Shown here: positions 3,173 to 55,255 of the stretch, piece after piece
How positions within the stretch are numbered: position 1 is the stretch's first letter
Layout: every line of letters begins with the position of its first letter
NCBI GenBank assembly: GCA_965261895.1
Contig: OZ253480.1
Span: 2,727,788 to 2,791,787, forward strand
Direction: 5' to 3'
DNA from: an uncultured Candidatus Binatia bacterium
GTDB taxonomy: Bacteria; Desulfobacterota; Binatia; UBA9968; JAJDTQ01
Length of the DNA: 64,000 bases
Position numbers and translations under genes: made by a program
Notes under the pieces: generated by a model
What the model saw: the letters and a program-made list of their open reading frames with translations, nothing else
Databases searched by the model: none
What the model was told of the DNA's origin: nothing

Positions 3173-3193
3173 GGGCGGGTTTGAAACCCGCCC
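3173..3193. repeat. Solo 21-bp core palindrome GGGCGGGTTTGAAACCCGCCC (same core as the MITE family)
   Basis: Perfect inverted repeat between the large-subunit start and the small-subunit stop. The adjacent CCTAC supplies the small-subunit TAG stop (3194-3196). Confidence 0.8.
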
Positions 3194-5954: not shown

Positions 5955-5981
5955 TTGTAGGGGCGGGTTTCAAACCCGCCC
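5955..5981. repeat. Solo core palindrome (TTGTAGGGGCGGGTTTCAAACCCGCCC)
   Basis: Same 21-bp palindrome as 3173..3193, in reverse orientation. Confidence 0.8.
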
Positions 5982-6033
5982 GCGCCCGCATTGCGCCGTC
6001 GCCCGACACGGGCCGGCAGCGCGGAGTATCCGT

Positions 6034-6735
6034 TCAGTCGATGGCGAGCCGTTTCGCCCGCCGCACGAAATAGTCCCACATGCTGCCCAGCCGGTGCGGC
6101 GTGTAGATCTGGTCGTACTTCTCGCGCGCCTCCTCGTCGTTACTCCAGGTGGGATCTCCGGCAGCGGCGGCAAGGAGCTGTATGCGACACGCCTTTTCCA
6201 GAAAGATCGCGTACAGGGTGGCGGTCTCCACCGATTCGGCCACGACGGTGGAGCCGTGGTTTTTCATCAGCACGGCCCGGTACCCTTCCAGCTTCTTGGC
6301 CAGCTCCACCCCCAGCTCGGGCGTCCGGATCAGGATCGTGGTGTAGTCGAAGAGCGGGAGCCCATCGTGGAAGATGGAACCCTCGTGGCTCACGGGGCGC
6401 AGCGGCTGTCTCAGGGAGCCGAATGCGGTGGCGTAGGGCGGATGGCTGTGGATAACGCAGTTCACGTCCGGCCGCGCCCGGTAGATCTCCGTGTGGATGA
6501 ATACCTCGGAGTGGCGCTCGTAATCGCCCTCGATCTTGTTGCCGTCGAAGTCCACCTTGATGATGTGGTACGGGCGGATCTCCTCGAAGCCGTAGCTGTG
6601 GGGCTTCATCAACATGACGTTCTCGCCCGGCACCCGGGCCGACACGTGCCCCAGGATATTGTCCCAGTGCCCTTCGAGGGCCAGGATGTTGCACGAAATC
6701 GCCACCTTGTCTCTCAACGCTACCAAGTCGTCCAT
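6034..6735 (-). CDS. Class II aldolase/adducin-domain protein
   Basis: 233 aa with conserved aldolase II metal-binding histidines (HSHPPYATA). Confidence 0.75.
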   Translation of the reverse strand: MDDLVALRDKVAISCNILALEGHWDNILGHVSARVPGENVMLMKPHSYGFEEIRPYHIIKVDFDGNKIEGDYERHSEVFIHTEIYRARPDVNCVIHSHPPYATAFGSLRQPLRPVSHEGSIFHDGLPLFDYTTILIRTPELGVELAKKLEGYRAVLMKNHGSTVVAESVETATLYAIFLEKACRIQLLAAAAGDPTWSNDEEAREKYDQIYTPHRLGSMWDYFVRRAKRLAID

Positions 6736-6750
6736 GAAACCCCCTTGAAA

Positions 6751-6888
6751 GTCCTTCGACTCCGCTCCGCTTCCTTCGACTCCGCTTCGCTACGCTCAGG
6801 ACGAACGGTTGTGGAAGGCCTCTCTCCGTTCGTCCTGAGCGTAGCGAAGCGGAGTCGAAGGAAGCGGAGCGGAGCGAAGTCGAAGGAC
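6751..6888. repeat. 138-bp near-perfect hairpin (about 58-bp arms, 17-nt loop) between the aldolase start and the CoA-ligase stop
   Basis: The left arm gtccttcgactccgctccgcttccttcgactccgcttcgctacgctcaggacgaacgg is reverse-complementary to 6826-6888. The arms also contain an internal direct repeat. Confidence 0.8.
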
Positions 6889-6897
6889 CGCATTATC

Positions 6898-8442
6898 CTA
6901 TCCCCTGAGCTTGAACCGCTGTATCTTGCCAGTCACCGTCTTGGGCAGATCGTCCACGAATTCCACCCAGCGCGGGTACTTGTACGGTACCAGACTGCCC
7001 TTGACGAAGTCCTGCAGCTCCTGGGCCAGCCCGTCGGCGCCGTGGTGCTCGGTCTTGAGGATGACGTAGGCCTTGGGCTTGATGAGGCCGTCGGCGTCGG
7101 CCTGTCCGGTCACCGCCGCCTCGAGCACCGCCGGATGCTCCATCAGCGCGTTCTCCACCTCAATGGGCGAGACCCACAGGCCGCCCACCTTGAGCATGTC
7201 GTCGGAGCGGCCACAGTACCAGAAATAGCCGTCGTCGTCCCGATAGTACGTGTCGCCGGTCTTGAGCCACTCCCCGAGCATGGTGCGCTGGGTCTGCTCG
7301 TGTTTGTTCCAGTAGTAGGGTGCGGTGGCGTCGCCGCTGACGTACAGGTTGCCCACCTCGCCGTTGGGCACTTCACGTCCCTCGTCGTCCACCACCTTGG
7401 CCACGAAGGCCGGCGTCACCTCGCCGCTGCTTCCCGCCTTTGCCCGTCCCGGCCGGTTGGCGAGGAAATCGTGGGTCGCCTCGGTGGAGCCTACGACGTC
7501 CAGCAGCTCCACGCCGACTTTCTCCCGCCACTGGTTGAAGAGGGCCGGCGGCAGCGGCTCTCCGGAGGACAGGCAGACCTTCAGCGAGCTGAGGTCGTAC
7601 TCCTTCTCCACCCGCAGCATGCGGGCGTAGAGCGTCGGCACCGAGAAGAAGAAGGTGGGCCGGTACCGCTCGATGGTTTGGAGTATTTTTTCCGGATCCG
7701 GCCGTTCGGGCCACAGCACGCCGGCGGCTCCGAAACGGAAGGGGAAGTAAAGGGAGTTCCCCAGCCCGTAGGAAAAGAACAGTTTGGAGGCGGACAGGCA
7801 GACGTCGTCCTCGGTCATGCCGAGCACGGGCTTCACGAACAGATCGGTGATGGTGATCATGTCGTGCTGGAGATGGACCGCGCCCTTGGGGTTGCCTGTG
7901 CTCCCCGAGGTGTAGTTCCACATGACGACGTCGTCGCGTCCGGTGGGTTCCGCTTCGAGCTCCGCGGACTGGCCCTCCAGCAGGGCGTCCCAACCCATGG
8001 CGCTACCCCGCGGGGTTCCCACCACCACCACGTGGCGCAGGTGGCGCGGCCTTTCGCTGATGGCCTCGATCTCGGGCAGCGCGGACTCGTGCACCACGAC
8101 GATGCGAGCCCGGCTGTCGTTGAGGAGGTACTCGTAATCCCCGGCCTTCATCCAGGGATTCACCGGAATGGGGACGGCGCCGATCTTGATGGCGCCGAAG
8201 AAGCTGAAAGCGAACTCCGGGCAGTCGGGAAGCACCAGCAGGACGCGCTGTTCCGTGTCAAGCCCGAGTCCGCGGAATGCGTTCCCGGCGCGGTTGACCG
8301 CCTCCTGGACCTGCCGGTAGGTGATCCGCTGGTCCTCGTACAGGATCGCGGTGCGCTCGCCGCGGCCGGCGGTGACGTTGTCGTCGACGAACGTGGTGGC
8401 CGCGTTGTAGGGGTCCGGCAGTTCGAGTCGCGGAGCGCTCAT
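6898..8442 (-). CDS. AMP-dependent aryl/acyl-CoA synthetase (benzoate-CoA ligase-like)
   Basis: 514 aa with the AMP-binding motif YTSGSTGNPKG and C-terminal GKIQR. Confidence 0.8.
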   Translation of the reverse strand: MSAPRLELPDPYNAATTFVDDNVTAGRGERTAILYEDQRITYRQVQEAVNRAGNAFRGLGLDTEQRVLLVLPDCPEFAFSFFGAIKIGAVPIPVNPWMKAGDYEYLLNDSRARIVVVHESALPEIEAISERPRHLRHVVVVGTPRGSAMGWDALLEGQSAELEAEPTGRDDVVMWNYTSGSTGNPKGAVHLQHDMITITDLFVKPVLGMTEDDVCLSASKLFFSYGLGNSLYFPFRFGAAGVLWPERPDPEKILQTIERYRPTFFFSVPTLYARMLRVEKEYDLSSLKVCLSSGEPLPPALFNQWREKVGVELLDVVGSTEATHDFLANRPGRAKAGSSGEVTPAFVAKVVDDEGREVPNGEVGNLYVSGDATAPYYWNKHEQTQRTMLGEWLKTGDTYYRDDDGYFWYCGRSDDMLKVGGLWVSPIEVENALMEHPAVLEAAVTGQADADGLIKPKAYVILKTEHHGADGLAQELQDFVKGSLVPYKYPRWVEFVDDLPKTVTGKIQRFKLRG

Positions 8443-8491
8443 GCTCGTTTCAATTCGGAGCCCGTACCGGCCGACAGCGCGATACGGGCGC

Positions 8492-8512
8492 GGGCGGGTT
8501 TGAAACCCGCCC
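8492..8512. repeat. Solo core palindrome GGGCGGGTTTGAAACCCGCCC
   Basis: Perfect 21-bp inverted repeat followed by CTACA. Confidence 0.8.
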
Positions 8513-15100: not shown

Positions 15101-15289
15101 CTAGTGTGGTGTGTCACAAATACGGTTATGAAGATGCGAGGGCATTTTGGTTGTCGGCAAGGCGCGATGACTTGTAGGGGCGACCGGCGGTCGCCCCCCA
15201 GTGGCGTGCACCACGCGAGGAAGAGCAACGCAGCCGACGGCCAAAAGGACCCGCAGATTCATAACCTTATTTGTGAGACACCACACTAG
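15101..15289. mobile_element. MITE copy A (189 bp; TIR CTAGTGTGGTGTGTCACAAATAC; core variant GGGCGACCGGCGGTCGCCC)
   Basis: Terminal inverted repeats ctagtgtggtg...caccacactag. It sits between the TctA-family gene and the DUF1989 gene. ORF-track entry 15104..15289 is its translation. Confidence 0.8.
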
Positions 15290-24922: not shown

Positions 24923-25111
24923 CTAGTGTGGTGTCTCACAAATACGCTTATGAAGCTGCGAGGGCATTTTGGTTGTCGGCAAGGCGCGATGACTTGTAGG
25001 GGCGGGTTTCAAACCCGCCCGTGTGGCGGGCACCACGCGAGGAAGAGCAACGCAGCCGACGGCCAAAAGGACCCGCAGATTCGTAAGCGTATTTGTGAGA
25101 CACCACACTAG
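24923..25111. mobile_element. MITE copy B (189 bp; canonical TIR; core GGGCGGGTTTCAAACCCGCCC)
   Basis: ctagtgtggtgtctcacaaatacg ... cgtatttgtgagacaccacactag. Confidence 0.85.
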
Positions 25112-25293
25112 TGTCCTGTCCGGTTAATTCGCATGGTAAGATGCGCAGGATTTTTCGTCGTCGACAAGGCGCGATGACGTGTAGGGGCGACCGGCGGTCG
25201 CCCCCGTGGCGGGCACCACGCGAGGAAGAGCAACGCAGCCGACGAGAAAAAGACCAGCAGATTACCGTGCGAATTGACCGGACAGGACACTAG
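25108..25293. mobile_element. MITE copy C (186 bp; alternative TIR CTAGTGTCCTGTCCGGTTAATTCGCA; same core family), tandem to copy B and sharing one CTAG
   Basis: ctagtgtcctgtccggttaattcgca ... tgcgaattgaccggacaggacactag. The internal segment is near-identical to copy A. Confidence 0.8.
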
Positions 25294-28529: not shown

Positions 28530-28740
28530 CCCGCTTGGGTACGGGAATGGCACCGACACCCGCATTGTCATTCCCGCGCAAGCGGGAATCCAGGGGTGTG
28601 GAGGGGGCAAACGGGCATGCCTCCCCGCCCCACCCCTCCTGGATTCCCGCTTTCGCGGGAATGACGATTTCGGGGGTCGTTACCTCTCTCGGATGGCGTT
28701 TTGACACACCCTGTTTCGCGGGAATGACCCATGCCGGGCC
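28530..28740. repeat. Cluster of family-2 palindromic repeats (GTCATTCCCGCG-MAAG-CGGGAATCCAGG; ATTCCC-N8-GGGAAT type)
   Basis: Copies at 28567-28594 and 28638-28665, with a half copy at 28713-28728. An approximately 92-bp unit is nearly identical to 55132-55223. Confidence 0.75.
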
Positions 28741-44314: not shown

Positions 44315-44504
44315 CTCAGTGTCGTGTCCCGGAAATTGGCATGATCATTTGCTTGTCCTTTTTACCGTCGGCTACGTTGCTCTTCCTCACGTGGTGGCCG
44401 CCACACGGGCGGGTTTGAAACCCGCCCCTACAAGTCATCGCGCCTTGCCGACGACAAAAATTCCTGCGCAACTAATCATGCCAATTTCCGGGACACGACA
44501 CTAG
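44315..44504. mobile_element. MITE copy D (third TIR variant CAGTGTCGTGTCCCGGAAATTGGCATGAT; core GGGCGGGTTTGAAACCCGCCC) between nuoH and nuoD
   Basis: cagtgtcgtgtcccggaaattggcatgat ... atcatgccaatttccgggacacgacactag. The terminal CTAG (44501-44504) provides the nuoD TAG stop. Confidence 0.8.
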
Positions 44505-45702: not shown

Positions 45703-45739
45703 CGACAAATCCATCGCGGCACACTGCCGACAAAAGGGT

Positions 45740-45928
45740 CTAGTGTGGTGTCTCACAAATACGCTTACGAATCTGCGGGTCCTTTTGGCCGTCGGCTGCG
45801 TTGCTCTTCCTCGCGTGGTGCACGCCACTGAGGGGCGACCGCAGGTCGCCCCTACAAGTCATCGCGCCTTGCCGACGACCAAAATGCCCTCGCATCTTCA
45901 TAACCGTATTTGTGAGACACCACACTAG
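45740..45928. mobile_element. MITE copy E (189 bp; canonical TIR; core variant GGGCGACCGCAGGTCGCCC) between nuoD and nuoC
   Basis: ctagtgtggtgtctcacaaatacgc ... gtatttgtgagacaccacactag. The terminal CTAG provides the nuoC TAG stop (45925-45927). Confidence 0.85.
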
Positions 45929-46431
45929 CGCATGTTCTCCGGGACCAACGGCTCGCGCTCGGTGCTGATGCCGTCGTACTCTTCCTGCTCCACGAAGTCC
46001 TTGCGCAGCGGATAACCCACCCAGTCCTCGGGCAACAGTATCCGCCGGAGGTCCGAATGCCCTTCGAAGATGACCCCGAAGAGATCGAACACTTCCCGCT
46101 CGAACCAGTTGGCGACCTTCCAGATGTCTTCCACCGTCGCGATCCGCGGCGCTTCCCGGTCCAAGTCGACCTTGATCACGGTCTGTTGCCGGGACTCGTA
46201 CGAGTACAGATGGTAGACGACCTGTATGATCTCCTCCTTCGGAAAATCCACGGCCGTCAGATCGGAGAGCACGTCAAATTTCAGCACGTCGTCGTCGCGC
46301 AGCGCCAGGAGCAACTCCTTGAGGCTGGCCGCCTTGACCTTGAAGAAAGGGTCCAGAACCTGCTCGTCAAGGTCGTCCACGCCCCCGGGACAAAGCTCCC
46401 TGGCGCGCTCGTATATCTCTTTTGCGGTCAT
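45925..46431 (-). CDS. nuoC: NADH-quinone oxidoreductase subunit C
   Basis: ORF 45925..46569. Probable ATG at 46431 (MTAKEIYERAREL); the upstream part of the ORF translates the MITE. NuoC/30-kDa signature. Confidence 0.85.
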   Translation of the reverse strand: MTAKEIYERARELCPGGVDDLDEQVLDPFFKVKAASLKELLLALRDDDVLKFDVLSDLTAVDFPKEEIIQVVYHLYSYESRQQTVIKVDLDREAPRIATVEDIWKVANWFEREVFDLFGVIFEGHSDLRRILLPEDWVGYPLRKDFVEQEEYDGISTEREPLVPENMR

Positions 46432-46480
46432 GTCGTCGCTATCTGCCCGGAAATCCTGCCCGTCCGAGCCGGCTGATGTC

Positions 46481-46669
46481 CTAGTGTGGTGTCTCACAAA
46501 TACGCTTACGAATCTGCGGGTCCTTTTGGCCGTCGGCTGCGTTGCTCTTCCTCGCGTGGTAACCGCCACACGGGCGGGTTTGAAACCCGCCCCTACTCGT
46601 CATCGCGCCTTGCCGACAACCAAAATGCCCTCGCATCTTCATAACCGTATTTGTGAGACACCACACTAG
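46481..46669. mobile_element. MITE copy F (189 bp; canonical TIR; core GGGCGGGTTTGAAACCCGCCC) between nuoC and nuoA
   Basis: ctagtgtggtgtctcacaaatacgc ... gtatttgtgagacaccacactag. The terminal CTAG provides the nuoA TAG stop (46666-46668). Confidence 0.85.
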
Positions 46670-47043
46670 TTCTTCACCCACTCCAGATCGCCCTTGCACC
46701 AGTCGTAGATGAGACCCAGAAACACGATCATGGTGAAGATGGAGATGGCCCCGAACGCAAAAAGTCCCGCGTCGTTCTGAAGCCAGTTGCGGAAGACCAC
46801 GGCCACCGGGAAAATGAAGGCGATCTCCACCTCGAAGATGATGAAGATGAGGGCGATGAAGTAGAACCGGACGTTGAAGTTGACCCAGGCACTCCCGGTC
46901 GCGGGCTCGCCGCACTCGTAGGTCGAGAGCTTTCTGAGCTGGGGATTGTTGGGCCGCAGCAAGCGGCCGATCAACAGGTTCACCCAGACGAAGGCCGCCC
47001 CCAACAACGTGAAAACCAGTACACTGGCGAAGTCGAAAAGCAT
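46666..47043 (-). CDS. nuoA: NADH-quinone oxidoreductase subunit A
   Basis: 125 aa with a NuoA/ND3 signature (STYECGEP). Confidence 0.88.
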   Translation of the reverse strand: MLFDFASVLVFTLLGAAFVWVNLLIGRLLRPNNPQLRKLSTYECGEPATGSAWVNFNVRFYFIALIFIIFEVEIAFIFPVAVVFRNWLQNDAGLFAFGAISIFTMIVFLGLIYDWCKGDLEWVKN

Positions 47044-54939: not shown

Positions 54940-55255
54940 TCACTTATAGGAAGCCCCTGGGGACCTGTCAAATTCCGTCTGCCCTCCGCCCCCAACCCCG
55001 CCTGGATTCCCGCTTGCCAGGGTGTGTCAAAACTCAACTTCGGGGGACGAAAGGCCTCTCTGTCATTCCCGCGAAAGCGGGAATCCAGGGGTCCTGGAGG
55101 GGTCCCCACGCGCCGTTTCCCCACTCCACCCCGCCTGGATTCCCGCTTTCGCGGGAATGACGATTTCGGGGGCCGTTGCCCCTCTCGGATGGGGTTTTGA
55201 CACAGCCTGTTTCGCGGGAATGACGGAGTGGAGCACTACTGCCCAATGACGGAGT
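54940..55255. repeat. Second cluster of family-2 palindromic repeats (GTCATTCCCGCGAAAGCGGGAATCCAGG)
   Basis: Copies at about 55003-55020 (variant), 55061-55088 and 55132-55160, with a half copy at 55210-55225. A unit is near-identical to 28638-28728. Confidence 0.75.

Follow-up and report, generated by a model that had tools for sequence, protein, structure and literature searches.

The window, a stretch of 64,000 nucleotides of DNA, carries a long palindrome in the spacer between two genes of one operon. The locus raises the question whether this palindrome is a signal made for the operon, or a repeat that came to lie in it. The first-pass annotation had left three options for its nature: a MITE of another family, an RNase III processing site, or a bidirectional terminator.

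The hairpin and its operon

A near-perfect hairpin of 138 bp had been described at 6751-6888, with arms of about 58 nt, a loop of 17 nt and an internal direct repeat, and all of these features were borne out by repeat search and folding. The repeat search gave a perfect inverted repeat of 49 nt (6760-6808 versus 6826-6874, 17 nt apart). Folding lengthens the stem to the entire element (6751-6888), which has a left arm of 58 nt (6751-6808), a loop (6809-6825) and a right arm of 63 nt (6826-6888) with a single 5-nt bulge at about 6873-6879. The direct repeat, TCCTTCGACTCCGCTYCGCT, occupies 6752-6771 and 6772-6791, and the right arm holds its mirror image. The minimum free energy of the sense (minus-strand) RNA was -125.8 kcal/mol, compared with -60.7 ± 4.2 kcal/mol for 200 dinucleotide shuffles (z = -15.5), none of which was as stable as the hairpin. 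The DNA fold gave -82.1 kcal/mol (z = -19.3). The invariant core hairpin (6795-6839) is composed of CTCAGGACGAACGG, the 17-nt loop and CCGTTCGTCCTGAG. A GTAG tag on the plus strand (6841-6844) stands directly outside the core in the right arm, and its mirror, CTAC, can be read directly from the sequence in the left arm (6790-6793).

The hairpin did not match any entry of Rfam 15 at the gathering threshold. In E-value mode only sub-threshold matches to generic miRNA precursors appeared, which any long hairpin gives, and the Betaproteobacteria-1 entry, at 20 bits, stayed well below its cut-off of 49. Seventeen loci of the repeat family described below likewise gave zero matches in gathering mode.

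The operon context was also as first described, with the hairpin in a gap of 162 bp between the stop codon of a CoA ligase and the start codon of a class II aldolase, save that the two genes are encoded by the minus strand. The upstream gene encodes an AMP-binding CoA ligase of 514 aa (6898..8442, stop codon TAG at 6898-6900), and the downstream gene encodes the aldolase of 233 aa (6034..6735, ATG at 6735). The stem base is 9 nt from the ligase stop codon. On the other side, the aldolase Shine-Dalgarno sequence AAGGGGG (6740-6746) is located 4 nt past the stem base and is not sequestered by the stem. The nearest named homologues of the aldolase belong to Candidatus Binatia (77-79% identity), and the gene order of aldehyde dehydrogenase, CoA ligase, aldolase and a 332-aa protein is kept among relatives.

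Four orthologous operons were compared, and neither the hairpin nor words of its family were found in the ligase-aldolase spacer of any of them. The aldolases of these operons are 95% (L107), 89% (L108), 83% (L111) and 79% (L112) identical to that of the window. The spacer measures 83 nt in L107, 31 nt in L108 and 7 nt in L111, and the two genes overlap in L112. Judged from these sequences, the presence of the hairpin in the ligase-aldolase spacer is lineage-specific. When the window was compared with L107, homology resumed downstream of the hairpin at GGGGGTTTCATG and ended upstream near the ancestral stop codon. The window ligase ends in ...KLRG*; the three orthologues nearest to it (L107, L108 and L111) have 3 aa more and end in ...RLRESNS*, ...KLREKTP* and ...RLREQQG*. 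Because the ancestral stop position abuts the hairpin, the insertion seems to have brought a new TAG upstream of it. No empty site, target-site duplication (TSD) or exact insertion point could be reconstructed from the orthologous ligase-aldolase spacers, since these spacers are not alignable.

The neighbouring spacers of the operon were also inspected. In the window, the two of them each contain a GTAG-type REP, GGGGCGGGTTTSAAACCCGCCCC, at 5962-5980 and 8493-8511. In relatives, the neighbouring spacers hold other palindromes or are almost absent. Three consecutive operon spacers thus carry different palindromes and the orthologues carry others or none, which marks these spacers as recurrent landing pads for repeats. 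Two palindromes in the relatives were recorded in their own right. One, CCAGGCGGGCCCTGG, in an operon spacer of L107 (2417-2501), is different from and unrelated to the hairpin. The other, in a spacer of L108 (3195-3360), is an unrelated palindrome, GACGCGCTACTGGCG...CGCCAGTAGCGCGT, with GTAG/CTAC tags.

A dispersed family of palindromes

The inner part of the hairpin (6772-6862) matches a family consensus with 95.6% identity over 91 nt (blastn, E = 1.8e-36). The canonical consensus reads ATGGCGTCCTTCGACTTCGCTTCGCTACGCTCAGGACGAACGG, followed by a variable loop and the mirror arm CCGTTCGTCCTGAGCGTAGCGAAGCGAAGTCGAAGGACGCCAT. When one genome per species was scanned with the core pattern (CTCAGGACGAACGG, 4-30 nt, CCGTTCGTCCTGAG), the core hairpin was present at more than 105 loci among the matches listed. 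The family occurs in at least 13 separate 8-kb blocks of the closed Binatia MAG chromosome OZ244869.1 (5.36 Mb), and in at least 16 separate 8-kb blocks of the closed MAG chromosome OZ220710.1. Further copies were present in the fetched loci at 18 per 460 kb, including solo arms and forms with long loops. This density suggests about a hundred or more copies per genome, a rough figure that is biased by clustering.

The canonical form was found, among the matches listed, in Binatia MAGs, in two MAGs labelled Thermodesulfobacteriota and in sponge-associated 'Deltaproteobacteria' MAGs. Variants with the 14-nt core and GTAG were listed for Lysobacter, Herbaspirillum, Sphingomonadales and Methylococcales, and the matches listed from the core-anchored scan include core-sharing relatives in Alpha-, Beta- and Gammaproteobacteria, Lentisphaerae and Fibrobacteres. 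No family match was found in a plasmid collection by blastn or in viral contigs by pattern scan. Within the 64-kb window, no second copy was detected by 15-mers with up to 3 mismatches, by nhmmer with one arm, or by blastn-short with the consensus and five variant modules as queries. The chromosome OZ220710.1 also has the other MITE family of the window at 85-97% identity. Together with the Binatia homologues of the aldolase, this makes it probable that the window organism is within the repeat-rich clade that bears the hairpin family. The hairpin had been called unrelated to the other repeat families of the window. This holds at the level of sequence, but in the related MAG OZ220710.1 the CTAGTGTGG... 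MITE family is joined, at L019, L048 and L059, to a left arm of the hairpin family.

No name for the family was found in the literature by its DNA words or by the words of the encoded peptides. Word searches in the text of Di Nocera et al. 2013 (PMC3733652), which treats 24 GTAG families, found no match to the family either. As far as these word searches can tell, this REP/REPIN-like family appears to be unnamed so far. One property of the core complicates literature searches. The invariant core GCTCAGGACGAACG (6794-6807 and 6827-6840) is identical to the 5' end of 16S rRNA after primer 27F in many Gram-positive bacteria, which is probably a coincidence. Because of this identity, the literature matches to words of the core are tables of 16S primers.

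The anatomy of the family was derived from an alignment of 20 copies, the window copy and 19 from other genomes. The alignment has 63 invariant columns; the arms are near-invariant and the loop cannot be aligned. Pairing was kept in 94.9% of the cells, and double changes were observed at 7 pairs. Changes on both sides of a pair were counted in 18 cells, compared with 7.1 ± 2.2 in shuffled alignments, and none of the 500 shuffles reached 18. The loops fall into recurrent types, and the window loop, TTGTGGAAGGCCTCTCT, belongs to the commonest, the 'TTGTG..CT' type (18 of 63 copies). This indicates that the loop is passed on as part of the element, to which it lends a polarity. Some copies take a branched form through optional side modules such as CCCTTCGACAGGCTCAGGAC.

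A GTAG/CTAC tag adjoins the core in 137 of the 214 arms sampled (CGTAG in 103, overlapping (G)TAG in 34). Some variants (those of Lysobacter and Herbaspirillum, and a few MAG copies) have the layout of a classical REP, with a short GC-rich stem-loop after the tag, such as GTAG-CGCCGC-GTCA-GCGGCG or GTAG-GCGC-GAA-GCGCC. The palindrome after GTAG is degenerate in the canonical Binatia type (CGAAGCGAAGTCG), and neither arm of the window copy has the small REP palindrome, a stem-loop of 5 bp or more that follows GTAG. A strict test for this stem-loop was passed by only 6 of the 214 arms. At 147 element ends, conservation fades past ..GGACGCCAT and the flanks are mirror images, not direct repeats; no target-site duplication was found at any of these ends. 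The flanks of the window element, GATAATGCG and TTTCAAGG, have nothing in common.

The placement of copies relative to genes was determined with a crude GC3-based gene caller, which reproduced the genes of the window. Almost all of the classified copies are intergenic (57 of 58): 40 were between co-directional genes, 13 between convergent genes and 4 between divergent genes, and 1 was apparently intragenic. The median gap to the stop codon upstream was 32 nt, and that to the next start codon was 45 nt. REPs show the same bias towards unidirectional and convergent spacers near the upstream 3' end, according to Di Nocera et al. 2013 (PMC3733652). The orientation of the loop relative to transcription was 10:8, and G.U versus A.C mismatches on the sense strand were 10:7. 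In these small samples there is no bias of orientation or G.U pairing, so nothing points to a strand-specific RNA function.

The window copy is longer than the canonical form. It consists of a canonical copy at 6772-6862 (TCCTTCGACTCCGCTTCGCTACGCTCAGGACGAACGG, loop and mirror arm), defined by the consensus match and the alignment, with a partial outer-arm unit on each side. The left unit (6751-6771, GTCCTTCGACTCCGCTCCGCT) matches consensus positions 77-97 in reverse orientation, and the right unit (6863-6888, AGCGGAGCGGAGCGAAGTCGAAGGAC) has an additional pentamer, which forms the bulge. The unusual length therefore results from a doubling of the outer-arm unit of about 20 nt on both arms. Other copies multiply the outer unit as well: L003 and L120 have it doubled on a single arm, and the Lysobacter locus L072 has a tandem of three. 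This indicates that tandem duplication of this pentamer-rich unit is recurrent in the family. In the window, the tandem duplication would have come first, on one arm. It may then have been copied to the opposite arm through template switching within the palindrome, and the bulge pentamer would be a later slippage event. The proposed template switching is based on the quasipalindrome-correction model, which is established. If this proposal is true, the mirrored duplication is a tidy case of palindrome self-correction. An origin of the long form by nested insertion was also considered and is less parsimonious than tandem duplication, given the one-armed cases elsewhere. When JGI metagenomes were scanned for the duplication junction GTCGAAGGAAGCGRAGCGRAG, six matches were obtained, three of them chance or coding matches and three related repeats, and none was a similar long hairpin. 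Thus, the long form looks like a one-off rather than a propagating subfamily.

Nature of the element

The hairpin probably belongs to a dispersed family of non-autonomous palindromes of the REP/REPIN kind, which is abundant in Binatia-like genomes. A copy of such a family that landed between the genes of an operon would be an unremarkable repeat, selfish or neutral, rather than a regulatory signal made for the place.

REPINs are REP doublets that form hairpins (Bertels & Rainey 2011, PMC3116915). The family resembles them in its conserved inverted ends with a less conserved spacer, in its long hairpin with compensatory changes, in its dispersed extragenic copies on chromosomes and in being missing from the plasmids and viral contigs searched, and it carries the GTAG tag. 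It differs from REPINs in that the REP unit is not itself a short imperfect palindrome beside the tag: the window arms are without their own small REP palindrome, and the stem is far longer and perfect (49-58 bp). The likeness to GTAG-tagged REP dimers, as described in PMC3733652, includes a GTAG/CTAC tag on each arm, an inverted dimer and a placement near the upstream 3' end. The variants of Lysobacter, Herbaspirillum and some MAGs are like GTAG REPs in having GTAG followed by a GC-rich stem-loop of 5-6 bp. The canonical Binatia type departs from them in that its tags point towards a further invariant hairpin in the centre (CTCAGGACGAACGG / CCGTTCGTCCTGAG).

By analogy with REPINs (PMC3116915), the family would spread via a single-stranded hairpin that is handled by a Y1 (RAYT-type) transposase. 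A scan for the HUH...YxxNP motif and tblastn with E. coli RayT found no RAYT/Y1 transposase in the window and about 0.85 Mb of family loci. The RayT positive control was recovered in this search; a RAYT, being a single-copy gene that the repeats usually flank, may lie elsewhere in these genomes. There is a slim chance that the family is not RAYT-driven at all, and that it depends on a mobilising enzyme not yet known or on a conserved host factor that uses it as operon 'punctuation'. This reading draws on the canonical Binatia arms, which are without the REP hairpin that RAYTs recognise. It also draws on the near-invariance of the arms and the 14-nt core across Binatia-like MAGs and on the occurrence of the core in other phyla, which would suit a new enzyme or a host factor. 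A host factor could be, for example, a nuclease or a protein that binds dsRNA or cruciforms. If the family is indeed not RAYT-driven, active arm-to-arm homogenisation would explain the perfectly mirrored duplication of the window copy.

It is unlikely that the hairpin is a locus-specific regulatory RNA, which would act as an RNase III site, as an mRNA stabiliser or as an attenuator that uncouples ligase and aldolase expression. In the sense transcript, the hairpin fits exactly between the ligase stop codon and the aldolase Shine-Dalgarno sequence, and its stability is extreme. RNase III binding or cleavage of repeat hairpins also has a precedent in Correia elements (PMC2649163). However, an element built for this operon is hard to reconcile with the same sequence at more than 100 unrelated loci among the matches listed, in both orientations and with no G.U strand bias. 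The hairpin is also missing from the four orthologous operons, even from the one whose aldolase protein is 95% identical, and the neighbouring spacers hold other, unrelated repeats in different lineages.

Among the three options of the first-pass annotation, the MITE of another family came closest, as the element is dispersed and multi-copy; but there is no TSD and the anatomy is that of a GTAG-REP dimer or REPIN. Genome-wide copies with TSDs had been proposed as the sign of a plain MITE, and dispersed copies were indeed found in other genomes, but the TSDs are absent. A classical TIR-MITE, derived from an insertion sequence with a DDE transposase and inserted with a TSD, is accordingly improbable, although the long terminal inverted repeats, the small size and the many dispersed copies would agree with it. 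The flanks show no direct duplication and are themselves palindromic, the inverted repeat covers the whole element, no parent IS was noticed in passing among 0.85 Mb of loci, and the plasmids and viral contigs searched had no match to the family.

An intrinsic terminator, in one direction or in both, is very improbable. The GC-rich stem is very strong, and UUUC follows it on the sense strand, but neither 3' flank has a U/T run (UUUCAAGG, sense; CGCAUUAU, antisense), nor do the flanks of the consensus (ATGGC / GCCAT). A terminator scan of 6000-8500 gave no site at the hairpin. The bidirectional terminator of the first-pass annotation is not supported for these reasons, and also because the two genes are co-directional members of a conserved operon.

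A fold-back chimera of the assembly is hardly credible: assemblers can yield perfect long palindromes, and a suspicious one of 116 nt stands at the contig start of L069, but the hairpin is mid-contig between intact genes, an 87-kb contig of an ENA metagenome (ERZ25068816 contig_76) has an identical hairpin along with the same genes, and several closed MAG chromosomes contain canonical copies. The palindrome of L069 (1-270, Herbaspirillum MAG) is perfect over its 116 nt, reaches far past the repeat, and most likely arose itself by fold-back during assembly, with the hairpin as the seed.

Effects on the mRNA, other repeats and wider meaning

A repeat copy of the REP/REPIN kind may still act on the mRNA in which it is transcribed. 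RNase III requires about 20 bp or more of near-perfect dsRNA, and the folded sense RNA contains 58 bp. An RNase III site is thus structurally plausible, since transcription in the sense direction would yield this duplex. By analogy, the duplex in the polycistronic mRNA could plausibly be cut by RNase III, which would be a side effect of the repeat. The Correia elements (CREE, NEMIS) of Neisseria are dispersed hairpins of 100-150 bp, co-transcribed with neighbouring genes, that can be bound or cleaved by RNase III (PMC2649163). They are the best analogue for the action of the hairpin on mRNA, and the sequences are unrelated.

The duplex of 58 bp could also be a barrier to 3'-exonucleases. In E. 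coli, intercistronic REPs reportedly shield the upstream mRNA from 3' exonucleases, and a REP within about 15 nt of the stop codon is said to depress translation of the upstream gene. The window hairpin is like the E. coli REP/BIME elements (e.g. malE-malF) in being an intercistronic palindrome, and with a stem base only 9 nt from the stop codon it could obstruct ribosomes that terminate on the ligase. In contrast to the REP stems, which are about 10-15 bp and imperfect, the window stem has 58 bp. These consequences for the operon would be incidental, and the aldolase ribosome-binding site stays free. Correia elements are further marked by target duplications of TA, by IHF sites and by ends that create promoters; the window family showed none of these.

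Several other repeats were recorded in the window. The classical GTAG-type REP, (GTAG)GGGCGGGTTTSAAACCCGCCC, has 11 copies in the window versus 0 expected and is also present at several Binatia loci. Its 19-nt cores in the window are at 3174, 5962, 8493, 25001, 33650, 36329, 44408, 45683, 46573, 48336 and 52469. MITE-like elements of about 190 nt, with the terminal inverted repeats CTAGTGTGGTGTCTCACAAATACG..., are at 15101-15289, 24923-25111, 45729-45939 and 46471-46679, and also at 25108-25293 and 44318-44502. A REP is at the centre of at least three of these copies (24923-25111, 46471-46679 and 44318-44502). A third hairpin repeat, GTCATTCCCGCGAAAGCGGGAATCCAGG..., is at 28564-28668 and 55062-55161, and also at the Binatia and sponge-MAG loci L012, L034, L035 and L054.

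In annotation, the element is best entered as a member of a repeat family, and labels such as terminator, riboswitch-like element or small-RNA gene should be avoided. Together with its relatives that have the CTCAGGACGAACGG core, the family is abundant in genomes of uncultured Binatia-like bacteria; it has no Rfam entry and is therefore likely to give rise to spurious ORFs and assembly breaks. The operon, with different repeats in its spacers in different lineages, is a convenient natural system for asking whether spacer repeats alter the relative expression of neighbouring genes.
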